From: Methanobacteriota archaeon
Lineage (GTDB): Archaea; Thermoplasmatota; Poseidoniia; Poseidoniales; Poseidoniaceae
Direction: 5' to 3'
Assembly: GCA_002689345.1 (NCBI GenBank)
Contig: NZFU01000002.1
Coordinates: 8,438-72,437 of the forward strand
DNA length: 64,000 nt
A program made the translations under genes and the position numbers. The stretch's first letter is position 1; each line of letters opens with the position of its first letter. Below, in pieces: positions 51,832 to 64,000 of the stretch. The notes below the pieces were generated by a model, which was given only the letters and a program-made list of their open reading frames with translations, was not told where the DNA came from and did no database searches.

Positions 51832-54800
51832 GTGAGAAAAATGGCAAATATCTCTTACTTAGAAAATCCTCTCGAATCAGAGGTTTTGTATGAGACATTA
51901 TGTCAACCAGTAAGGAATTGGTTTAAAGATAAATTCCCTGATTTTACCAAACCTCAGAAATTAGCAATTCCTTCGATTATGGATGGAGACCATCTATTAC
52001 TTTGTTCACCAACCGGTTCTGGAAAGACACTAACGGCATTCCTAACTATTATCGATAAATTGGTCAGACATGCCTTAGATGGAACTTTAGAACAACGTGT
52101 CTACTGTCTTTACATATCTCCAATAAAAGCTCTAGCAAATGATATTCAAAAGAACTTGATTGGACCGCTTGGGGAAATAGAGGAGAAATATCTACCAGAT
52201 AGGGCTCAAGGGAAAATTCGAGTAGGTCTTAGGACTGGTGATACCCCTCAATCTGAAAGGCAAAAGATGCTGCGTAAGCCACCTCATATTCTGATTACAA
52301 CACCAGAGAGTATGGCTATTGCTATCTCATCACCTCGATTCCAACCTATTGTATCCAATGTTGAATGGATAATTATTGATGAGATGCACTCATTGGTTCC
52401 AACAAAGCGAGGAGTACATTTAGCACTTACAATTTCACTTCTAGATACGATTCTAGAGAGACCAGTTCAACGAATTGGTATATCTGCTACGATGGAACCA
52501 TTGGAAACTGTAGCAGAATATCTAGTAGCAAGTGATGACCGCGAAAGTCGTAATGCAAGTCAGGATGTAAAGATTGCAAAGATTAGTGGAGCTAGAGAAT
52601 TAGATTTAGACATCCTATTGTGCTCTCCAAAATTCAGTGACCTTTCGGTGATGAAAGTTCTAGAGATGAATGTAGAAATGATCGCTGATCTAATCAGTGC
52701 ACATAACACAACTCTAGTATTCGCAAATACAAGAAAAATGACTGAAACTTTGGTACAAAAGTTACGTCCTTACTTAGGCGAATTAATCGCAGGTCACCAC
52801 GGTTCTATGGACAAGAGAATCCGTCTTGATGTCGAGAGGAAATTAAAACTGGGCCATTTGAGGGCAGTTGTCACTTCATCTTCCTTGGAAATGGGTATTG
52901 ATATCGGTTCTGTCGACATGGTAATCCAAATCGGCTCGCCAGGAGACATTGCTACAGCATTGCAAAGAATAGGTAGAGCAGGACACCACGTAGGCGGAAT
53001 TCCTCGTGCTAGGTTCTTGCCAACGAGTGTAGATGATCTAATCGAATTAGCTGCATTACAAGCAGCAATTCAAACTGGTGAAATGGATAAATTAGATTTT
53101 CCACAAAATAGTTTAGATGTTTTAGCACAGTTCTTGATAGGTCTCGTAATTATCAATGAACGAGATATTGATGAAGCCTATGAAGTAGTTACTAGCACTT
53201 GGTCATATCGAAATTTGAGATATGATGATTTTATTGAAGTTCTAGATATGCTTGAAGAAGAACGTCGTGTTTGGATTGATTGGGAAGAAAACCTCTATGG
53301 AAAGCGCGGATATTCAAGAATGATTTACTACACAAATATTGGTACTATCGCTCCTGATAATTCATACCTAGTATTCAATGCCGAAGGAAGTATCTTGGGG
53401 CAATTATCATCTTCATTCGTTGCAAACCTAAGAGGCGGAGATGTCATTCTTCTTGGAGGCTCCACTTACAGAGTAACCAATATTCAAGGAACAAGAGTAA
53501 ATGTTGCCTCAGTTACAGGATACAGGCCAACAGTCCCTTCATGGAGTGGTGAAGCTAGAAGCCGTTCAAGGGAGTTATCTGGGGCGTTGTTAGACCTCAT
53601 AGGACATTGTGTTAACACTCTAAGACGTCAAAACGACCCTCGTGTAATTCTAAGAGATGCTTATGGATTGAGCGAAGGTGTATCTAATACAATAGCTAGG
53701 CATTTAGAAGAGCATACTCTCGATTCATTCCAGGTACCCGATCCAAATCGACTAATTGTTGAACAAATCGTTTCTGGTGGAATGCCAACATACCTGATAA
53801 CATCTTGTCGAGGAAGAGGATTCAATACTGCATTAGGATACTTTATGGCAGGATTGGCAGAAAAAGATGGTATCGCTGTGCTAGAGTTGTCATTTGATGA
53901 AAATGGATTACTTATCAAAACTAGTCAAGAAGTAGACCCAGGAAAAATGTATGAGTCATTCCAATCCAATGACCATCTAGAGGTCATTGAAAGATATATT
54001 GTAAATACACAAATATTTGCTAAGAGATTCAGAGAAGTTGCAGGCCGCTCACTAATTATTCCTAAGAGAATCGGGGCTGAAGAAGTGAGCCCTCAGCAAT
54101 TCCAGCAACGCGCAGATTCATTGTTGCAGAGACATCGTTCGATTGAAGATTCATTATTGATTAAAGAAGCGAAGGCTGAAATTATGTTCGGTGATATCGA
54201 CATAAAATCACTAAATGACTTCTTAGAATCCAGTAAAGACTCTGAAGCAAGAATCGTTCACACAAAGGTTCCTGTTCCTTCAAGGCTCGGAATGAGCCTT
54301 TACATGAGTACTTTCGAAGATCTACTGTCAATGAAGACAAGAGCGTTCCTTGTCAAAGACATAGACCCTGAAATTTTACGCCGATTGTTGGGTAATAGGA
54401 GTCTTGCAACTGAATTAACCGATGAGCAATTAGCAGATTACTATTCCAATAAGGTCCCTAATCCAACCAATGCTTCACAACTTCTGCACCTAATGAGTAA
54501 AGGTGGAGGTTTAGATCGTAATTGGGAAAACCCTCTGTATGCTGCTAAACTAGCAGGTATCGAACACAGCCTTATCGAAAAATGGGTTGCTGATTTAGCA
54601 CAACAAGGTGAAATTACAAAATTGCGTTCAACTGGAATGAAAGAACTTGATGACAAATGGTTTACTTCATACATGGCTGAAATCCATGGCTCTCTAGGAT
54701 GTATTGCTGAAGCTGGTGGCAAGGACATGGAAGATATTCGTGACCTTTACACCAAGGGCATTACATATGAGGTAGCAACTGATTTTAATGGATTAAAGCC

Positions 54801-57126
54801 TACTAAATGGGTTGAAAAAACCATTTCAGATCCCCATGAAGCATTACGTGTGAAAATTATCGAAATGCTGGGCAGTGAAGGTCCTGCTAAGGGCGACCAA
54901 ATTTCTGGAAGACTGCCTTTCCCACAGGGACAAATCGATTCAATTTTGCATGAATTAGAGATGCGAAATGTAATTTCAGTCGGATTCTTTACTCAAACAG
55001 AAGATGCCGAATACATCCTCAAAGTCGATGAGCATAGAATTACTGGCGGAGAGGAAGATGTTGTCGAATATCGATGGGTTCAGAACCTAGTTATGAGTAA
55101 ATCATTCGAGACATACCCCGATGGATTTACTGCATTCGATCAACATATTCTATTCCAAAAACAGCAAGAAATGCTGTATAGAGTAGATGGATTCAGATAT
55201 GCTGATTGGAAAGATGTTCAACTTGACTCAGATGTTGTCATGGGTAGGCTATTGCATAACAGAATAGGTTATACCACTCGTAAAAATATTCCAATGCTAC
55301 TGGGTTTGAAGCCAGAACCTTGGCTGGGCGAAATGGAAAAATTGATTCTTGAAAAGGTACCGAAGGGTGAAAATCTAACTCGTCAAGAAATTTTGGCTGA
55401 TTTCCCTAAGGGCGAGGAACACAAATCTCTTCAAAGGGATTTGAAGAATGCAATTAGCAATCTAGAAAGACAGTTATGTTTGGTCAAACAATTCGAGGAT
55501 GTTGTTGGACGCAGACGAAGACTGTCGCTATTCCACCGTGTTCATGATGTCTATGAATCAATGGATTTCGAAGATGCATTGGTTGAAGTAATCAAGCGAA
55601 TGGGGCCTGTTAAGGCGTTCACTCTACGTTATTATGTATCCAGAAGTGTTGAGGAATTGGCATTAGCACTACGAAATTTAGAGAACGATGGACGAATTGC
55701 TAGAGTTATGGCATTAGTGCCAGAACCTGAAGCATTTTACGTACTTCCAGATGAAGTATCTAGTCTTAGTTCACCTAATAGAGAAGATAGAACGTTACGT
55801 ATTCTTACTCAATCCGACCCATATGTTTCGAGATTCATTTGGGAAGTTCGCTCAGTGCTTGATAGAGGATGGTATCTACCGGTATTCAAAGGGGTTGACC
55901 CTATTGGAAAGGTGTTGATGTTCAAGATTAATGATTATCTTGAGATTAAGGACATGCATATTCCTTATGCCTATCTTGATGAATTCTGTACAGCTTTTGA
56001 GAAATTACTAGACAATCATTCTGACCAGTTGGTAGATGTTGCTGTACTATCCCAATTCAATGGAATACCTGTTACTGAATTAGAAGATGACTTTAGAAAT
56101 GCTCTGGAAGGAATAGGATTCAAGTTAGCGGGGGAGAGAATGATTCGTGGAGGAATCGTCGATCCGCAACCAAGAGAAATTGCTGAAAGAGCATTATTCC
56201 ACCGACATCATTTACATCAAAACTCGCGATTAGAAAACGAAATTGAAGCACTGGAAAGTGTTCAAGAAGTTAGAGATGATTTCGGGCTACGTGGACGTGC
56301 TGAAGTCTATCGGGTTAGCCTGAAAAACATGGCTAGTGCCCATCAGTTGCACCAAGGAATCAATTTACGAGGACACCAAGTATGGGCATCGTATGACCAC
56401 TTTTCGACTTTACTTGCTATACGAGGACAAGAACCTGTTGAAGAATTACTAGATGTGCTTGAATTCTTCGAAACTCATAGTGACCCTAATCTATTCATGG
56501 AAAGACATGCAATGAAGCGTGCTGCTTTCAGAAAATTGATTCAGCCATTATTGCGAAGTGGCCATATGGTTCAGGATTACCGTGGAGGTTTCCGTTCTGT
56601 AGCACCTCGGCAAGGATTAGACCCGGTTATTTTGCGAAGAGAATATCTGAGAAGGTTAGTTTCAGATTACCCTGTAATAACTCTCAAACAATTCACTCGT
56701 CTAGCAGGAACACCATTTAAGCCTGAAGAATTGAAGGCGATATTAACTGAATTTGAAGAAGATTCAACACTGATTAAGGGATTCTTGATTCAGGATTTGC
56801 ATGAGGTTTGTTGGGGTAGAAAAGATCTGCTCAATGAAGCCAAAGATGTGCCACCAATCCGTGATTTCGTAATTCCGCCATCTGACCCGATTGCGCCATA
56901 CTTTGCTGATGTGTTGAAACAAAAGTTCGGATTTGGTAGTGCTTACCTAGTATTCAGGAATGCAGAACCTGTAGCCGCTTTCAAAGCTAATACTCGAGAT
57001 AAGGTGATAGATGTCACTGATTATGAAGGTTCGGAAAAGGGTTGGAGAATCGTTAAAGAATTCGCATGGGAACATCAAATGCCACTCAAGACCGAATTGA
57101 GAATTGGTGGCAAGAGAAGAAAGTGA
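51832..57126 (+). CDS. lhr: Lhr-like superfamily-2 DNA helicase, long form (1764 aa) with a roughly 850-aa C-terminal extension
   Basis: Motif I is CSPTGSGKT and motif II is IIDEMH. ISPIKALANDI is typical of the Lhr core. Motif VI is QRIGRAGH. The C-terminal half contains repeated winged-helix-like segments. Confidence 0.7.
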   Translation: MRKMANISYLENPLESEVLYETLCQPVRNWFKDKFPDFTKPQKLAIPSIMDGDHLLLCSPTGSGKTLTAFLTIIDKLVRHALDGTLEQRVYCLYISPIKALANDIQKNLIGPLGEIEEKYLPDRAQGKIRVGLRTGDTPQSERQKMLRKPPHILITTPESMAIAISSPRFQPIVSNVEWIIIDEMHSLVPTKRGVHLALTISLLDTILERPVQRIGISATMEPLETVAEYLVASDDRESRNASQDVKIAKISGARELDLDILLCSPKFSDLSVMKVLEMNVEMIADLISAHNTTLVFANTRKMTETLVQKLRPYLGELIAGHHGSMDKRIRLDVERKLKLGHLRAVVTSSSLEMGIDIGSVDMVIQIGSPGDIATALQRIGRAGHHVGGIPRARFLPTSVDDLIELAALQAAIQTGEMDKLDFPQNSLDVLAQFLIGLVIINERDIDEAYEVVTSTWSYRNLRYDDFIEVLDMLEEERRVWIDWEENLYGKRGYSRMIYYTNIGTIAPDNSYLVFNAEGSILGQLSSSFVANLRGGDVILLGGSTYRVTNIQGTRVNVASVTGYRPTVPSWSGEARSRSRELSGALLDLIGHCVNTLRRQNDPRVILRDAYGLSEGVSNTIARHLEEHTLDSFQVPDPNRLIVEQIVSGGMPTYLITSCRGRGFNTALGYFMAGLAEKDGIAVLELSFDENGLLIKTSQEVDPGKMYESFQSNDHLEVIERYIVNTQIFAKRFREVAGRSLIIPKRIGAEEVSPQQFQQRADSLLQRHRSIEDSLLIKEAKAEIMFGDIDIKSLNDFLESSKDSEARIVHTKVPVPSRLGMSLYMSTFEDLLSMKTRAFLVKDIDPEILRRLLGNRSLATELTDEQLADYYSNKVPNPTNASQLLHLMSKGGGLDRNWENPLYAAKLAGIEHSLIEKWVADLAQQGEITKLRSTGMKELDDKWFTSYMAEIHGSLGCIAEAGGKDMEDIRDLYTKGITYEVATDFNGLKPTKWVEKTISDPHEALRVKIIEMLGSEGPAKGDQISGRLPFPQGQIDSILHELEMRNVISVGFFTQTEDAEYILKVDEHRITGGEEDVVEYRWVQNLVMSKSFETYPDGFTAFDQHILFQKQQEMLYRVDGFRYADWKDVQLDSDVVMGRLLHNRIGYTTRKNIPMLLGLKPEPWLGEMEKLILEKVPKGENLTRQEILADFPKGEEHKSLQRDLKNAISNLERQLCLVKQFEDVVGRRRRLSLFHRVHDVYESMDFEDALVEVIKRMGPVKAFTLRYYVSRSVEELALALRNLENDGRIARVMALVPEPEAFYVLPDEVSSLSSPNREDRTLRILTQSDPYVSRFIWEVRSVLDRGWYLPVFKGVDPIGKVLMFKINDYLEIKDMHIPYAYLDEFCTAFEKLLDNHSDQLVDVAVLSQFNGIPVTELEDDFRNALEGIGFKLAGERMIRGGIVDPQPREIAERALFHRHHLHQNSRLENEIEALESVQEVRDDFGLRGRAEVYRVSLKNMASAHQLHQGINLRGHQVWASYDHFSTLLAIRGQEPVEELLDVLEFFETHSDPNLFMERHAMKRAAFRKLIQPLLRSGHMVQDYRGGFRSVAPRQGLDPVILRREYLRRLVSDYPVITLKQFTRLAGTPFKPEELKAILTEFEEDSTLIKGFLIQDLHEVCWGRKDLLNEAKDVPPIRDFVIPPSDPIAPYFADVLKQKFGFGSAYLVFRNAEPVAAFKANTRDKVIDVTDYEGSEKGWRIVKEFAWEHQMPLKTELRIGGKRRK

Positions 57127-57175
57127 CAAACTTTCTTACCAATATCATCTAATCACAATTTTCAGTCCAATAATC

Positions 57176-60100
57176 ATGGACATGAGAAGTGTTAGATTAA
57201 ATAACAAGGAAATGGGACGGACAATTGTGAACCGTAAGGCGTTTATCCTAATTGCTCTGATGATTTTAGTTTCAGCAAGTCCACTATTATCTTCAACATC
57301 TGCTAACGAAGTCGAAGATATTGTGATTCTTGATACTGCAGTCAATCCTGCCAATAACCACACCTACCATTTGTTATCAGCATCATCTTGGAGTGATGCT
57401 GCAACCGTTGCTCGTAGTCTTGATGGATTCTTGGTAACCATAGATGATGCTGAAGAAGACGAGTGGATTTTCGATACATTTGCCAGTGGAAATGACACCA
57501 CACGTCACCTATGGATCGGTCTTTCAGATTCACAAGAAGAGGGAGATTATCGCTGGCATGATGGAACTCCATTCATGTATCGAAATTGGGGTGAAGGGCA
57601 GCCTGGAAGTGGGGATGACGAAGATTATGTCCACATTACAGGAACCAATATGGGATCTATCGAGCCAGCGGATTGGAACGATTTAGAAGATGACCCACAA
57701 TACTTCCCTGTCTATGGGGTAGTTGAGATTGGTGAAGGTGCTGATTATGCCCTCAGGTTTGATGGCGATGACGACCACATAATCATCGATGAAGAAATGC
57801 CAGATTGGGATGGCCATATTGAGATTGAAGCATGGGTCAATGTTCCAGATACAGATGGAATACAATTTATCACAATGTTCGGAGATTATGGATGGGGTCT
57901 TTATCTGAATAATGGAGACTTAGCCTATTCAAATCAATATTCAATGTCACAGAATCCAGTTTCAAACCAATCCATTCAAGAAAATGTATGGACTCATGTT
58001 AAGGTAGTCGTAAATACCACAAACGGTGGTGAATTTTTCATTGACAACCAATCAGCAGGTTTGATTGATGTAAATGATTCACAAATTCCAAGTGGTGACT
58101 TCGGTTCAAATGACTGCTTCCAATCAGGAGATGATTGTGATGAGTTGTTTATTGGAAAGATGGGAGCAGGTTGTGACTGTAACTACTTCCGTGGAATGCT
58201 TGATGATGTTATTATTAGTAATTCGATGAATGAAAGTATGTGGATGTTCACTGAAGGTGAAGGTGCATCAACCGTTGATTCACAAAATCGTGAGGGGGAA
58301 ATAATTGGCGCATCATGGGTTATGCCCGATGGAACAATTATTGCCCAGGCTGTTGAAATAGAAAATGGTGAATTCTATGATGGAATCGATGCAAATGCTG
58401 GAGACACCTTGCTATTTTTCATGGAGATTCCTGAAAACACCCAATATCTGAGTCTCAGTATGTACACATGGGAATTTGATTTCGAAGCGGAAGAAACATC
58501 TGAAGAAATAGAAATTGAAATATATATTTCGAAAGATGAAATTCCTTCGGCTTGGGACCATGACTATGAAGTGATCACATATGATTGGGGATTGTATGTC
58601 TATGAATACTTTGAATGGCCTGATGAAGGGACATATTGGATGACAGTTTCTTCCAATTATGAAATTTCAAACCTAGAGATAAATGCATACTGGGAACTTG
58701 CACCTGAGCCGCCGGAACTCGATGATATGACTGAACTTAATGATGGCATTGCAGTTACTGGTCAAACCATCACAAGAAATAGTGACAAACCCCTCTACTA
58801 CTATGTAGATTTACAAGATGAGTTGGCAGAATTACGTGTCAACACATGGGGCGGACCTGGTGATTGTGAACTGCACATAGCCCTAGGAGCCCTACCGATG
58901 ACCGATGATTGGGGATGGGATGATTTTGAGTCACAAAGTTCGAGTTCAGACACTAGCGGTCGACAAATCGGTGGTGGGCAAGAAACCTCAGACCATTCAT
59001 ACAATCCGGGTAATGATGAAACTGTGCAAATTTTCGATGCCCAACCGGGTATTTACTACATCATGATGACATCTTATAGTGGATGCAGACAAGTATCAAT
59101 ACAAGCTGATTTCACATATAGTCCAGACAATGTTGACCCTGAATCTGCTATCGAATTAACCGCTGGAATTTCCTATGGTCCACTTAGTGGATTCGAGGGA
59201 TTAGACCAATATTTCTACATCGATGTACCAGTGGGAACTGAGCGCTTAGAAGTTGATTTGAATAATGGTGATGGAGAGGCTAAATTGATGATGAGGCTCG
59301 ACCAATATCCAACATGGACAACCTATGACAAGCACTCTAATGCACCAGGTGCTGGTGATAAAATTGGATTTAATGATCCAACTCCTGGACGATGGTACAT
59401 ATTATTGGGCAGTGAAGAATATTACAGTCGTATCGATATTACAGCATCCTTTGAAGACCGCTATGTATGGACATATGATGGTGAACCTATTCAGTTATTC
59501 AATGATGAAGAGATTGGAGGAATTAGTGCTCCAGAAGGAGAAGAATTGTACTTCTTCATAGATTTAGGTGATGATGTTGCTTCAGATTTATTCATTGAAA
59601 CATGGGGTGGCGAAGGCGACCTAGCACTATTTGCCGAAGTTGAGGAAATCGACTGGGAAGACATGAACGGTGGCGGGCCAGGAGGTCGACAATGGGGCGA
59701 AAATGGAGAATATGAATCCGATAATGGTGAGGCTAATGAAGAAATAAGTATATTCTTTGCAACAGGTCAAATAGACATCACAATGTATGCAAATACTGAC
59801 ATTGAGGATATATCGATTATCGCAGTATGGGAAATATTTGATGCACCGGGACCTGGGCCAGACCCAGACCCAGACCCAGAACCAAACCCAGACCTAGAAA
59901 TTATTCCGTGTGATGAATATGCTTTGGAATTGTTTGAAGAGATGGATAGAAACTCTGATGGCGATTTAGGTCCAGAAGAAATGGATGAAGATGAATTAGA
60001 AGAATTTGACACCAACAGGGATGGTGTTATTGACATCAATGAATTAACAATGAGTGCTTGTACATGTGAAAATGAAATATGGATGACATTCATGCAAGTA

Positions 60101-60631
60101 GATTCTGATGAGTTGAGCATTGAATTCATGTCAAGTGTGGCTTGGAAGAATGAACATGATTTCTTTGCAATCGATAGAAATAATGACAATTATATTGACT
60201 CGATAGAAGTTGATGATTATGCTGAAACCTGTGTAACAACTTATGATCCTAATGACCGTGATGGAGATGGAACTCCAGACGATAAGGATGCATTCCCAGA
60301 TGACCCAGACGAAGACACTGACACTGACGGGGATGGAGTTGGTGATAATTCCGATATTATTGCCTCTGTAGACAATGACATTATTTGGGTATCATCTAGC
60401 ATATTAGGATTGATTTTAGTTACTGTGTTAGGTTATGTATTCATGCGTTCAAAGAGTGAACCTGAATATGCTTGGGAATATCACAAAGATAAGATGTCTG
60501 AATCTATGCTGGATAATTTACAACCAGTAAATGATGATTTAGCACCCGAAGAGGTCCCCCCAGCTTTAGACTTAGGACCACCAACAAAGGATGTTCCTGA
60601 CGATATGAAAGTTGCAGATCTCTACGATTGA
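57176..60631 (+). CDS. Large cell-surface protein with a signal peptide, a C-type-lectin-like domain, a LamG/ConA-like domain, about 4 PPC (pre-peptidase C-terminal) domains, a PD-repeat linker, EF-hand/dockerin-like Ca loops, TSP3-like poly-Asp repeats, a TM anchor, and a 70-aa cytoplasmic tail
   Basis: The CTLD-like block is WSDAATVARSLDGFLVTIDDAEEDEWIFDTF...HLWIGLSDSQEEGDYRWHDGTPFMYRNWGEGQPG...WNDLEDD, which includes WIGL and WND. LamG-like beta strands follow. PPC-like blocks are YYYVDL...GDCELHIALG..GIYYIMM, QYFYIDVPVG...GRWYILL and LYFFIDLG...GDLALFA. EF loops are DRNSDGDLGPEE, DTNRDGVIDINE and DRNNDNYIDSIE. The TSP3-like run is DPNDRDGDGTPDDKDAFPDDPDEDTDTDGDGVGDNSD. The TM helix is ILGLILVTVLGYVFM. 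The start was set to the ATG at 57176. Alternatives are 57212, or TTG at 57104. Confidence 0.65.
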   Translation: MDMRSVRLNNKEMGRTIVNRKAFILIALMILVSASPLLSSTSANEVEDIVILDTAVNPANNHTYHLLSASSWSDAATVARSLDGFLVTIDDAEEDEWIFDTFASGNDTTRHLWIGLSDSQEEGDYRWHDGTPFMYRNWGEGQPGSGDDEDYVHITGTNMGSIEPADWNDLEDDPQYFPVYGVVEIGEGADYALRFDGDDDHIIIDEEMPDWDGHIEIEAWVNVPDTDGIQFITMFGDYGWGLYLNNGDLAYSNQYSMSQNPVSNQSIQENVWTHVKVVVNTTNGGEFFIDNQSAGLIDVNDSQIPSGDFGSNDCFQSGDDCDELFIGKMGAGCDCNYFRGMLDDVIISNSMNESMWMFTEGEGASTVDSQNREGEIIGASWVMPDGTIIAQAVEIENGEFYDGIDANAGDTLLFFMEIPENTQYLSLSMYTWEFDFEAEETSEEIEIEIYISKDEIPSAWDHDYEVITYDWGLYVYEYFEWPDEGTYWMTVSSNYEISNLEINAYWELAPEPPELDDMTELNDGIAVTGQTITRNSDKPLYYYVDLQDELAELRVNTWGGPGDCELHIALGALPMTDDWGWDDFESQSSSSDTSGRQIGGGQETSDHSYNPGNDETVQIFDAQPGIYYIMMTSYSGCRQVSIQADFTYSPDNVDPESAIELTAGISYGPLSGFEGLDQYFYIDVPVGTERLEVDLNNGDGEAKLMMRLDQYPTWTTYDKHSNAPGAGDKIGFNDPTPGRWYILLGSEEYYSRIDITASFEDRYVWTYDGEPIQLFNDEEIGGISAPEGEELYFFIDLGDDVASDLFIETWGGEGDLALFAEVEEIDWEDMNGGGPGGRQWGENGEYESDNGEANEEISIFFATGQIDITMYANTDIEDISIIAVWEIFDAPGPGPDPDPDPEPNPDLEIIPCDEYALELFEEMDRNSDGDLGPEEMDEDELEEFDTNRDGVIDINELTMSACTCENEIWMTFMQVDSDELSIEFMSSVAWKNEHDFFAIDRNNDNYIDSIEVDDYAETCVTTYDPNDRDGDGTPDDKDAFPDDPDEDTDTDGDGVGDNSDIIASVDNDIIWVSSSILGLILVTVLGYVFMRSKSEPEYAWEYHKDKMSESMLDNLQPVNDDLAPEEVPPALDLGPPTKDVPDDMKVADLYD

Positions 60632-61581
60632 GATTTCTTTCTACCCGGAGCAAGACCTAATGGTCGCAATAACGCAAGTACGTGCCTATGCATTTGAGGC
60701 AGCATTTCAAACAAGACTAATGCTAGCAAAAACATAGCACCTAGAGATACAAACCTAGATGCATATGCATGGCCAAATTCGAATATGCTTAGATTCATCC
60801 ACTGCCATTCAGGATATCCCATCTGTAACCAAATAAGTCCTGCATTTCTAAACAAATTCAGGATATGAATCAGAGATAATGCAATGAATAGAGCTCTAAC
60901 ACGCTTTCTCCAGTCAATGTCGAGAACTGATATCGCTCCAACAAATATTATCATCGATTGAATAGCAGTACATGCTAGAACGAAATTAATGTATAGTGGC
61001 TCACCATTTACTAGTAACTCGGTATGAAATGAAAACTCAGACATTTCATCTGTTAAGAACCATTTATTTCCATCCCAATCATTCCAGAGAACTTGTTCTG
61101 AATTAGCAGGGTTGGCATATGTATCACCTAAAGTAACATCAGCACCTCCACCAAATGAAAGTAGAGCCGCTGATTGCCATGCGACGAACCAAATTGCTAG
61201 TATATTCAGCATTGGAACATGAGCGATTAGTAGGTATGGAAGTCCTGCTACTGCAACCGTACCTCTAAACCATTTCAATGCTTTAGCATATTTTTCCTCT
61301 GAAACATTTCTCTCCCAAAGTGCAATAGCAACTGCTCCCGGTAATGTAAGGGCACTCATTATTGTCAGCACTGGATCATCATGAGTGATGTAAAAACCAA
61401 CATCATTAAAGAAATAAAAACCAGTGAAAATCCAACCTAGTGGAGCTATTGATTCAAAGCGACCTTTGCGGCTTTTCCAGGTGATAAAAAGAATCAACAT
61501 GCCAATCACACCGAGAACGGTTGCGATTGACCTATCGACCAGATAGTCGCCTGCCATGCTACGCCAAGAATGGTGTTTCAT
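60622..61581 (-). CDS. Polytopic membrane protein, a candidate exosortase/archaeosortase-family transpeptidase
   Basis: It is 319 aa with about 8 TM helices. An extracytoplasmic loop precedes a TM helix containing VLACTAIQS (compare the exosortase ACSG Cys motif). NLFRNAGLIWL follows (compare the conserved N..R motif), and then FEFGHAYASR. It is flanked on both sides by secreted-protein genes. This call is from memory of the motifs and is tentative. Confidence 0.35.
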   Translation of the reverse strand: MKHHSWRSMAGDYLVDRSIATVLGVIGMLILFITWKSRKGRFESIAPLGWIFTGFYFFNDVGFYITHDDPVLTIMSALTLPGAVAIALWERNVSEEKYAKALKWFRGTVAVAGLPYLLIAHVPMLNILAIWFVAWQSAALLSFGGGADVTLGDTYANPANSEQVLWNDWDGNKWFLTDEMSEFSFHTELLVNGEPLYINFVLACTAIQSMIIFVGAISVLDIDWRKRVRALFIALSLIHILNLFRNAGLIWLQMGYPEWQWMNLSIFEFGHAYASRFVSLGAMFLLALVLFEMLPQMHRHVLALLRPLGLAPGRKKSQS

Positions 61582-61819: not shown

Positions 61820-61832
61820 AACGATAAATAGA
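61820..61832 (+). promoter_or_regulatory. TATA-box-like element (cgATAAATAgag) about 26 nt upstream of ATG 61853, consistent with a leaderless archaeal promoter
   Basis: It lies in an AT-rich 270-bp divergent intergenic region. Its spacing to the start codon matches the archaeal TATA position of -26/-27. A second TTTAAAA element lies at about 61724. Confidence 0.3.
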
Positions 61833-61852
61833 GAAGAGTATGTCACCAATTG

Positions 61853-64000
61853 ATGCTCGCCAATCCGACCGCTAGGACTTCCATAATACTCGTGTTCCTT
61901 CTAATCTCTTCTTTGGCTTCAGGGATGTTTTCTGATTTGACTGAATTGCAAGATGAAAATACACAGGAAGAAGTTACTGGACGCTCTTTGAGTCAATTAG
62001 GATGGGAATGGGCCATAAAAGATCAAAACGCGGGCAATACGATTTCCAAAGCCCTTCATGTAGATGCAACTGATGGGGATATTTTCGTTGCAGGAGTATT
62101 TTCAGGGGGTACTATAGTCCTTGGAAATGATGTATTACTAAACCGAGGTGGTTTCGATATTTTCTTAGGAAAACTCGATTATCAAGGCAATTGGATTTGG
62201 GGAACTTCAATCGGGGGGCCTGGTGACGACCAAATTCAGGATATGGTTGTCGATTCTAATGAGGTAATAACTCTAGTGGGTGCATTCAATTCTAGTGTTT
62301 TCACTGCAGGTAATCATTCTGTAAATAATGGCGGAGGATATGATGGATTCATAGTAAACCATCTGAATTCAAGCGGTGGATGGATGAATCTAGATTCGAT
62401 TACTGGAAGTGGTAATGAAAACATTACAGGAGTTGATGTAAACTCATCAGGAGGGTTGATTGTTTCTGGTTGGTTTGATGGTTCAAGTGCTCAACTAGGC
62501 CAAGTCAATCTTACATCGAATGGTGGAGCGGACATGTTTTTCGCAACTGTTTCAAATACTGGATATTGGGGCTGGGTTAGGCAATATGGAAGTGCAGGTG
62601 ATGAGAAGGCTAACGATATAGTTTGGAGCCCCTCGAATAAATTCGTTGCAGTAGGGGAGTTCAATAGTTCATCTTTACAATTCAATTCATCTACTGTATC
62701 TCACGGTGGTGGACAAGGACTGGATAGTTTTGTTATCAGGTCAAATATGAATGCTGTTGAATGGGTTAGGAAGCCAATTTACATCCAAGGTGACCGTGCA
62801 ACGCACGTTACTATTGATGGAATTGGAAACACGTTTGTTGGAGGCCAATATGAGATTGGCAATACAATGACTTGGGGTGCTGTTCAAGCTAGTTGCTATA
62901 ATGGATTGAAGGGCTTTTATGTAACAAAAATTTCAAGCGCAGGTTCAGTTGGGTGGGCTCAAAACTACTGCGCTAGATATAGTTCAAACTATTATCAGTC
63001 ATCATTGACAAGCCTAAATTCAACCGGTTCTGTTTTGATTGTGGGTTCTGAAACAAATACGGGTATCAAGACTGAAGGCTCTACATCTTGGAGCAATTGT
63101 GGAGGCCATAATTATCGAAATACAGCCTTATTCAAATTAGCTGCTAGTTCAGGACAAGTTGACACCTGTACTTCGATTATGGATACAACTGTTGGAGGGG
63201 CTGTTTGGCAATCGGCACCAATCAACAAAATGATATTAGCAATGGAGAGACATGGGGATTATGATAACACCAACGGAATACAGGCTGACATCGATACTGA
63301 TACATCAGCTGTTCTAATTTCAAATATGTCATCTAATGGTAATTCATTACAATGGCAAAAAAGTGTTGGAGCAACCGATCATGATTCCATATTTGCGATA
63401 GATTATTCCAATTCTTCTGGAATAATTACAGTAGCAGGAATTATGCAAAGTAACTCTTTGAGATTGGGTTCACATGTACTTAGTATGGGAGATAATCCAA
63501 AGGGTGAAGGGGCGGCCTTCTTTATTGCTCAGATAGATTCTAACGGTAATTGGATTGGTGGAGAAGTAGCACCCTTTGGTATGAATGATTTGAGCGATAA
63601 CTATCCAAAATGGTATTTGGGCGGAGATATGGCTGTTGCCGCAAACGGCACAGTATATCTTCTAGGGCTATATGATCAATCGATTTATTTTAATGGGTCC
63701 AATTATTCACTTAATGAATATTATAACAATCAATACTTCTTAGCAAGTTGGAACGCTACTAATGGGTGGTTACATGCAGAAAACCTACCATTAAATGATA
63801 ATGAAGAAGCAAAAATTGCTTTGGATGGAAATGGAACATTGTACTTGGTTGGTAAATGCCAGTATAACACTTACATGAATCTCCAATCGTATTCAAGTGG
63901 TGGATGTATTGCAAAACGTAGTGTGGGTTGGGATTGGATACACCATGGCGGTGGTGGTTGCGAGATCGATGCTGTTGCAGCAACTACAAACGGTGCATAT
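61853..64000 (+). CDS. Partial CDS (5' end in the window, open to the window end; at least 716 aa): a secreted beta-propeller repeat (SBBP-like) protein with a signal peptide and many N-x-S/T sequons. It was not in the ORF track.
   Basis: I translated every codon manually from ATG 61853 to 64000 and found no stop. The N-terminus MLANPTARTSIILVFLLISSLASG is a signal peptide. Repeats such as GGPGDDQIQDMVVDSNEVITLVGAFNSSVFTAG, SAGDEKANDIVWSPSNKFVAVGEFNSSSLQF and GGGYDGFIVNHLNSSGGW recur about every 45-50 aa, which fits the SBBP pattern (G.D.a.gIavDssGn.yvtG.t.s.dF). Confidence 0.6.
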   Translation, partial: MLANPTARTSIILVFLLISSLASGMFSDLTELQDENTQEEVTGRSLSQLGWEWAIKDQNAGNTISKALHVDATDGDIFVAGVFSGGTIVLGNDVLLNRGGFDIFLGKLDYQGNWIWGTSIGGPGDDQIQDMVVDSNEVITLVGAFNSSVFTAGNHSVNNGGGYDGFIVNHLNSSGGWMNLDSITGSGNENITGVDVNSSGGLIVSGWFDGSSAQLGQVNLTSNGGADMFFATVSNTGYWGWVRQYGSAGDEKANDIVWSPSNKFVAVGEFNSSSLQFNSSTVSHGGGQGLDSFVIRSNMNAVEWVRKPIYIQGDRATHVTIDGIGNTFVGGQYEIGNTMTWGAVQASCYNGLKGFYVTKISSAGSVGWAQNYCARYSSNYYQSSLTSLNSTGSVLIVGSETNTGIKTEGSTSWSNCGGHNYRNTALFKLAASSGQVDTCTSIMDTTVGGAVWQSAPINKMILAMERHGDYDNTNGIQADIDTDTSAVLISNMSSNGNSLQWQKSVGATDHDSIFAIDYSNSSGIITVAGIMQSNSLRLGSHVLSMGDNPKGEGAAFFIAQIDSNGNWIGGEVAPFGMNDLSDNYPKWYLGGDMAVAANGTVYLLGLYDQSIYFNGSNYSLNEYYNNQYFLASWNATNGWLHAENLPLNDNEEAKIALDGNGTLYLVGKCQYNTYMNLQSYSSGGCIAKRSVGWDWIHHGGGGCEIDAVAATTNGAY

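Follow-up and report, generated by a model that had tools for sequence, protein, structure and literature searches.

A predicted surface protein with a cysteine-free C-type lectin-like domain, conserved across the archaeal order Poseidoniales

Gene, family and fold of the N-terminal domain

Within a stretch of 64,000 nucleotides from contig NZFU01000002.1 of a Poseidoniales archaeon (assembly GCA_002689345.1), in the following called the window, the forward strand carries at 57176..60631 a gene for a putative type I membrane protein of the cell surface with a C-type lectin-like domain (CTLD) close to its N-terminus. The open reading frame (ORF) extends from 57104 to 60631, and translation from the ATG at 57176 to the stop codon at 60629-60631 yields a very acidic protein of 1151 residues (D+E 22%, K+R 3.6%, isoelectric point ~4.05). 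Public gene calls choose the same ATG (P0001, 1151 residues, ~100% identical); with the alternative TTG at 57104 as start codon, the gene would begin inside the 3' end of its upstream neighbour, which encodes an Lhr-type helicase (1764 residues).

The protein belongs to a large family that is present throughout the order. In a search of 5.8 billion proteins, 8000 candidates were scored and 332 of them proved to be relatives at E <= 1e-3; the family comprises more than 330 clusters at 90% identity from both Poseidoniales families. The best 120 of the 332 relatives share 45-100% identity with the query, the majority over 92% or more of its length. Where a source is given among the relatives listed, it reads Euryarchaeota, Candidatus Poseidoniaceae or Candidatus Thalassarchaeaceae, and the names attached to them by NCBI are "lectin-like protein" in one case and "pre-peptidase C-terminal domain-containing protein" in others. 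The whole protein gave no match to NCBIfam, and no description of the family was found in the literature searched. The residue conservation given below for the family refers to an alignment of 111 full-length proteins with identities down to 45% overall. The CTLD and the LamG domain that follows it are the best-conserved parts of the protein, with a column identity of 0.73-0.91 compared to 0.4-0.7 for the stalk and the cytoplasmic tail.

The CTLD (57326..57730, +, residues 51-185) is recognised by sequence alone. Pfam Lectin_C (PF00059) matches residues 69-163 with 42.2 bits (cut-off 22.6, E 1.5e-10), and a Lectin_C match is precomputed for nearly all relatives. With residues 45-195 as query, phmmer matched 182 chains among the PDB sequences. 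All 60 that are listed are C-type lectin-like domain proteins, mostly carbohydrate-recognition domains (CRDs), but also members that do not bind sugar, among them a type II antifreeze protein and lithostathine; chains consisting of a single CRD were matched at E ~3e-12. A six-frame scan of the window with a CTLD profile revealed no second domain of this kind.

For the fold we relied on structure prediction with AlphaFold2. A model based on a shallow alignment of 26 close relatives, all from this family, reached a predicted local distance difference test (pLDDT) score of 58.7 with an unresolved long loop and was discarded. The second alignment contained 56 sequences, including divergent cysteine-free CTLDs from the exhaustive profile search described below, and led to a model with a pLDDT of 88.8 and a predicted template modelling (pTM) score of 0.83. 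Its secondary-structure elements follow the order beta0-beta1-alpha1-beta-alpha2-beta2-long loop-beta3-beta4-beta5, and as modelled the N-terminal domain is a canonical double-loop alpha/beta CTLD. A Foldseek search of the PDB with this model gave 470 matches (E <= 1e-3), the first 50 of them without exception canonical CRDs. Here the probability is 1.00, and the partners include Mincle, CEL-I, CD23, aggrecan, MGL, ASGR1, DC-SIGN and SIGN-R1, with template modelling (TM) scores of up to 0.86 and root-mean-square deviations down to 1.7-1.8 Å (1.8 Å for the aggrecan CTLD). An earlier note on this DNA had read the region as a CTLD. With Lectin_C above threshold, a confident model and only CRDs among the top structural matches, this reading holds; neither a missing Lectin_C match nor a non-CTLD topology, which would have spoken against it, was observed.

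The same is true for the motifs that the earlier note had assigned by position. WIGL lies at residues 113-116, NWGEGQP at 137-143 and WND at 167-169, and W113, G115 and L116 are invariant, so that the WIGL-type core motif is present. HMMER alignments to animal CRDs place Q142-P143-G144 opposite their EPN or EPS triplet and Tyr151 at the second canonical cysteine (C2), and the positions proposed for WIGL, QP and WND are therefore correct. In the alignment to a mannose-receptor CTLD, for example, "QPGSGD..DEDYV" stands opposite "EPSHENNRQEDCV", with "EDYV" opposite "EDCV".

Cysteine loss and the predicted binding site

All four canonical CTLD cysteines are missing, as the earlier note had stated: there is no cysteine between residues 45 and 200, neither here nor in any of the relatives (111/111). 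The first position (C1) is taken by an invariant alanine (A79), C2 by Y151 (Y or F in the family), C3 by D172 (D or N) and C4 by an invariant valine (V183). A description of the whole protein as cysteine-poor does not apply, since eight cysteines elsewhere are invariant, four in the LamG domain and four in the EF-hand module; their conservation also means that the cysteine-free CTLD does not reflect a general avoidance of this residue.

Disulfide-free CTLDs also occur far beyond this family. When 1.84 billion representatives were searched exhaustively with a CTLD profile, 23,026 proteins scored at E <= 1e-3, and the best 150 of these gave 147 new representatives with 99 near-full-length domain matches. 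In 67 of these 99 domains there is no cysteine, and A, Y or F, x and V stand in the four positions as they do here; since the profile had itself been made from cysteine-free sequences, this share is biased. The triplet reads EPN in 62 and QPD in 18 of the 99, and WND is found in 74. Many metagenomic proteins (P0123, P0127, P0149, P0205, P0238 and others) carry cysteine-free CTLDs in tandem, with intact EPN or QPD triplets, WND and an N-terminal NPxNGHxY motif. One cluster of cysteine-free CTLDs contains a protein from a metagenome-assembled genome (MAG) of Nitrosopumilus sp. (QMU54492.1), and further ones are found on contigs of prokaryotic size (up to 2.25 Mb). Among the PDB matches from phmmer and Foldseek there is no solved structure of the cysteine-free subtype. 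Judged from these sequences, the disulfide-free CTLD is apparently a widespread, prokaryotic and seemingly undescribed subtype.

In consequence, two points that had seemed striking at first are weaker surprises than claimed. Since the cysteine loss is common to a large metagenomic subtype, it is not unique to this protein. Likewise, the statement that CTLDs are rare in archaea was too strong, given the more than 330 clusters within the Poseidoniales, the CTLDs of halomucin and the Nitrosopumilus MAG protein. By comparison, four features set the Poseidoniales family apart: the QP[G/S] triplet, an insertion before WND, the presence of a single CTLD and the combination with the other domains.

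The residues of the predicted ligand site are highly conserved within the family, with the exception of the third triplet residue. Q142, P143, W167, N168, D169 and D118 are invariant in the 111 proteins, and E149, E122 and D150 are retained in 93% or more of them (E149 in 107/111). WND and the glutamate before C2, the remaining ligands of site 2, are thus present. The triplet itself matches neither EPN nor QPD: it is QPG here and QPS in other lineages, the third residue being G (60 proteins), S (41), V (5) or another residue and almost never D or N. Mapped onto the structures of rat MBP-A and DC-SIGN, the family presumably retains four of five ligands in the principal Ca2+ site and three of four in the auxiliary one. 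The stretch from the C2 position to WND contains a seven-residue insertion peculiar to the family (GTNMGxIxP), in which T157, N158 and I162 are invariant. A variable protein of the C-type lectin (CLec) fold diversified by a diversity-generating retroelement was considered and rejected, as the residues of the binding loops are invariant across the 111 proteins and not hypervariable; a search for a reverse transcriptase was not part of this analysis.

Stalk, calcium-binding modules, anchor and genomic setting

The region before the CTLD (57176..57304, +) is poorly conserved in the family. It starts with a basic RK, continues with the hydrophobic stretch AFILIALMILVSASPLL and then turns into small residues (STSA/SSTSA), so that it resembles a Sec signal peptide with a putative cleavage site.

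Directly after the CTLD follows a Laminin_G_3, or concanavalin A-like, domain (57743..58231, +, ~residues 190-352) with invariant cysteines at 314, 321, 333 and 335. The domain reaches 33.6 bits with Pfam Laminin_G_3 (PF13385; cut-off 27.6) if its segment is scanned by itself, in agreement with the LamG domain that had been predicted, and 27.3 bits, slightly under the cut-off, in a scan of the whole protein; a phmmer search of the LamG segment against the PDB sequences gave no significant match. The presumed stalk contains four beta-sandwich domains of the PPC type. The first (58301..58711, +, residues 376-512) has no Pfam match, the second (58712..59131, +, residues 513-652) a weak one and the third (59132..59470, +, residues 653-765) a strong one to PF04151 (residues 678-744, 38.6 bits, cut-off 25.9), whereas the fourth (59471..59851, +, residues 766-892) is assigned by homology in hhalign. 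Since hhalign finds all four segments of residues 376-892 to be mutually homologous (probabilities 84-99%, E 7e-6 to 1.5e-16), the number of four PPC domains given in the earlier note is right. Also the (PD)n linker is found where it had been placed, as a Pro/Asp-rich segment (59852..59896, +, PGPGPDPDPDPEPNPD) between the fourth PPC domain and the EF-hand module.

The EF-hand module (59897..60244, +, residues 908-1023; invariant cysteines 912, 962, 964 and 1019) contains three canonical 12-residue loops (924-935, 945-956 and 1000-1011), as predicted, plus one degenerate loop. Loop positions 1, 3, 5 and 12 are invariant in the three canonical loops, three profiles score above their cut-offs (EF-hand_5 36 bits, EF-hand_6 34 bits, EF-hand_1 30.6 bits), and the region matches CaBP4 in the PDB with E 2.8e-6. 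The acidic run behind it (60245..60355, +, DRDGDGTPDDKDAFPDDP...DTDGDGVGDNSD) comprises two repeats that are invariant in the family and had been likened to thrombospondin type 3 (TSP3) repeats. This comparison stands for the motif, an invariant DxDGDGxxDxxDxFP in which Phe replaces the Cys of the TSP3 "CP", and fails for the Pfam domain: TSP_3 (PF02412) is not significant (E 2.3, 8.4 bits, cut-off 25), and we therefore speak only of a TSP3-like motif.

The protein ends with a predicted transmembrane helix (60380..60445, +, residues 1069-1090) and a cytoplasmic tail (60446..60628, +, residues 1091-1151). The helix is not preceded by a PGF motif, which agrees with the proposed C-terminal anchor other than PGF-CTERM; the tail, however, has about 61 residues and not 70 as had been counted. 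It occurs in two conserved types. In Marine Group IIa (MGIIa) it carries the invariant W1100, MSExML (1107-1112), PPALDLGP (1128-1135) and a terminal DL[FY]D, in contrast to the W-rich, WW-like end LMGM..DG.E.IE.P..SG..W.R..P..W of the more distant orthologues from Marine Group IIb (MGIIb; P0071, P0073, P0091, P0100 and P0111). A W-rich end is likewise seen in the unrelated surface protein L084. We rejected the idea that the protein is a substrate of archaeosortase A, which would call for a PGF-CTERM signal, because there is no PGF and a 61-residue acidic tail follows the transmembrane helix; nor was a PGF-type C-terminus found in any ORF of the window. A cassette of TSP3-like DxDGDGxGDNxDxFP repeats, transmembrane helix and tail also ends unrelated surface proteins of Poseidoniales and Thermoplasmata (L084 132..3944; L041 1089..4640), which points to a generic anchor of this lineage. 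From these sequences, the lineage as a whole seems to use the cassette as an alternative to anchoring by PGF-CTERM.

The gene is embedded in a conserved genomic neighbourhood. Directly upstream lies the gene for the Lhr-type helicase (51832..57126, +), and downstream the gene for archaeosortase A (artA; 60622..61581, -; TIGR04125, 92.5 bits, cut-off 75), which is convergent with the lectin gene, the 3' ends overlapping by 10 nucleotides. In related loci the Lhr product shows the domains DEAD, Helicase_C, WHD_Lhr, DEAD_assoc and AlkZ-like, and its C-terminal 500 residues are 70-95% identical across the order. Contigs with orthologues of 51% and 57% identity have the gene order class II tRNA synthetase-Lhr-lectin-artA-...-TiaS-...-proteasome alpha-SBDS. 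Among the loci with a full or near-full orthologue in species-representative genomes, artA lies immediately downstream on the opposite strand in 33 of 34, and Lhr lies upstream wherever the upstream flank is long enough; the nearest representatives are Poseidoniaceae (MGIIa) MAGs with 75-76% identity. As the same order is kept across the order, the lectin gene is part of the syntenic core genome of the Poseidoniales and not an island gene.

Some of the loci deviate from this picture. The only orthologue-like locus without artA within 3.5 kb downstream (L031, JAYPDK010000012.1, 1..2094) is 41% identical to residues 378-1070; it may have been rearranged or represent a paralogue. Two contigs labelled as MAGs of Salipiger bermudensis and Rhodobiaceae (L014, CAXQWT010000099.1, and L038, CALDQY010000164.1) bear artA and, in full or as the 3' part only, a lectin gene of the Poseidoniales type, the former contig also Lhr; both are probably mis-binned archaeal sequence. 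Behind artA, a large ORF (61832..64000, +, more than 720 residues) runs off the end of the window. It has a signal-peptide-like N-terminus, no Pfam match and repeats rich in G, S and N, possibly a beta-propeller, and it is absent from this position in L001 and L004, where a hydrolase of ~200 residues and TiaS follow artA. Rfam and tRNA scans of the window gave no matches.

Proposed function and comparison with known systems

With somewhat more confidence than doubt, and arguing from sequence, we regard the protein as a Ca2+-stabilised, membrane-anchored surface lectin whose head of CTLD and LamG domain would bind one conserved ligand of glycan type. As support we count the Lectin_C score, the fold matches to CRDs, the high conservation of the CTLD, of the LamG domain and of most residues in the predicted ligand site, the invariant EF-hand ligands, the acidic isoelectric point and the anchor of TSP3-like repeats, transmembrane helix and tail that is shared with other surface proteins, and in addition the adhesion and particle association that the literature infers for Marine Group II (PMC6461757). 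A Sec-type signal peptide would export the N-terminus, and the cysteine-free CTLD, packed beside the concanavalin A-like domain, would form the distal head. Both folds are typical for carbohydrate binding. The four PPC domains and the Pro/Asp linker would serve as a stalk, while the membrane-proximal EF-hands, with two probable disulfides, and the two TSP3-like repeats may bind Ca2+ from seawater and stiffen the base. A single transmembrane helix would anchor the protein and leave the 61-residue tail with its conserved short motifs in the cytoplasm. We predict that the long-loop site of the CTLD, made up of Q142, P143, E149, N168 and D169 with an auxiliary Ca2+ site of D118, E122 and D150, binds one conserved glycan or glycoconjugate with the assistance of Ca2+. 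Such binding could fasten the cell to exopolymers or to particles rich in polysaccharide, or keep these substrates at its surface.

Several observations weigh against this reading. Canonical CRDs use the third triplet residue as a ligand for Ca2+ and sugar, but this family has G, S or V there, and the residue after the triplet is S, D or A; this next position presumably corresponds to N188 of MBP-A, and it is not Asn here. The insertion before WND may alter the geometry of the site. Among animal CTLDs, a degenerate triplet often goes along with a lack of sugar binding. Besides, Pfam and NCBIfam scans revealed no catalytic domain in the protein, and a conserved syntenic core gene with invariant binding loops differs from what is usual for fast-evolving adhesins. 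This invariance across the order suggests one conserved ligand rather than varied targets and, together with the location in the core genome, argues against a diversifying adhesin and leaves room for a structural role or the recognition of self-glycans. Nevertheless, although the third Ca2+/sugar ligand is missing, Q, P, E149 and WND are kept, which makes Ca2+-dependent glycan binding plausible on sequence grounds.

The missing third triplet ligand also allows for a ligand other than carbohydrate. The CTLD could be an adhesin or receptor module for a protein, a mineral or another surface, as CTLDs of the NK-receptor, antifreeze and lithostathine types have non-sugar ligands. This is unlikely in our view but has several points in its favour: QPG or QPS replaces EPN/QPD and the following Asn is missing as well, the best sequence matches are CTLDs of the mannose-receptor family, many of which do not bind sugar, and antifreeze protein and lithostathine are among the PDB sequence matches. 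Against it stand the four of five site-2 and three of four site-1 ligand positions that are presumably kept throughout the order, which are hard to explain without a Ca2+ site, and the neighbouring LamG domain, itself a carbohydrate-binding fold. A structural component of the envelope, associated with the S-layer or binding the surface glycans of its own cell and perhaps linked to archaeosortase A, would fit the invariant loops and the single conserved position between Lhr and a convergent artA in 33 of 34 loci and in both families. The many predicted Ca2+ sites would fit as well, since S-layer proteins often have many of them. However, we consider it rather improbable: synteny extends over the entire region, a housekeeping block, and the lectin gene and artA are convergent, so that their adjacency is weak evidence for a functional link and co-transcription is impossible, and a 61-residue tail behind the transmembrane helix takes the place of PGF-CTERM. 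Very improbable is a transmembrane receptor that relays the binding of an external ligand through its tail to partners inside the cell. While the tail motifs kept across the family (W1100, MSExML, PPALDLGP and DL[FY]D) and the different, W-rich C-terminal mini-domain of the MGIIb branch could be understood in this way, Pfam recognises no signalling domain in the tail, and the similar tails on unrelated Poseidoniales surface proteins suggest a generic role in anchoring or sorting. A more far-reaching version, which we hold to be improbable, combines several of these elements. Here, the protein would be an order-defining core component of the envelope and not an optional adhesin, and its disulfide-free CTLD with the non-canonical Ca2+ site QP[G/S] would recognise one conserved ligand, perhaps a glycan from the surface of the cell itself or a polymer ubiquitous in the sea. 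The pairing with artA and the tail motifs would reflect a functional link, for example a new route of sorting or anchoring or an outside-in coupling.

The membrane-anchored surface lectin that we favour would be of interest for the biology of Marine Group II, to our knowledge among the most abundant archaea of the surface ocean and with no member that we know of in culture. So far, attachment of these archaea to particles or phytoplankton polymers has been inferred only from flagellar and "thrombospondin" genes (PMC6461757). The family described here is a concrete, order-conserved candidate for the binding of sugars or particles, and as its predicted ligand-binding domain has no cysteines it should be expressed in soluble form in E. 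coli, which makes the ligand specificity directly testable. Apart from ecology, a large prokaryotic subtype that keeps the canonical C-type lectin fold while lacking the disulfides typical of it bears on the evolution and stabilisation of this fold.

Among known systems, the closest in structure are the animal CRDs, such as those of Mincle, CEL-I, CD23, DC-SIGN, aggrecan and the mannose-receptor family. The Poseidoniales CTLD shares with them the fold (TM-scores 0.66-0.86 at 22-29% identity), WIGL and WND, the Gln-Pro of the triplet, the Glu two residues before C2 and the acidic residues of site 1 (GLSD...EG). It differs from them in the lack of cysteines, in QPG/QPS instead of EPN/QPD, in the seven-residue insertion before WND and in its N-terminal place within a type I membrane protein of archaea. 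To the metagenomic cysteine-free CTLDs it is related by the same cysteine replacements, an NPxNGHxY-like N-terminal strand and 28-48% identity. In contrast to these mostly EPN- or QPD-bearing tandem domains, it is a single CTLD with QPG/S, fused to LamG, PPC, EF-hand, TSP3-like and transmembrane segments.

Within the archaea, a pair of CTLDs is described for halomucin (HmuI) of Haloquadratum walsbyi HBSQ001, for which a protective or attachment role was proposed; these CTLDs are strain-specific and dispensable, as they are deleted in strain C23 (PMC3119063). By its published description halomucin is a giant secreted or surface protein of an archaeon, and the likeness to the family lies in its CTLDs. 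Unlike halomucin, which is several times longer and has mucin-like repeats, the family has its CTLD as the best-conserved part of an order-wide gene. Finally, the DxDGDGxxDxxDxFP repeats next to the membrane anchor resemble the prokaryotic Ca2+-binding surface proteins of the thrombospondin type, with the difference that there are only two repeats here and that they score below the Pfam TSP_3 threshold. Rinke et al. (2019) infer adhesion and particle association in the Poseidoniales from flagellar, widespread "thrombospondin" and flotillin genes (PMC6461757), and the lectin gene may be counted among the "thrombospondin" genes of that study.

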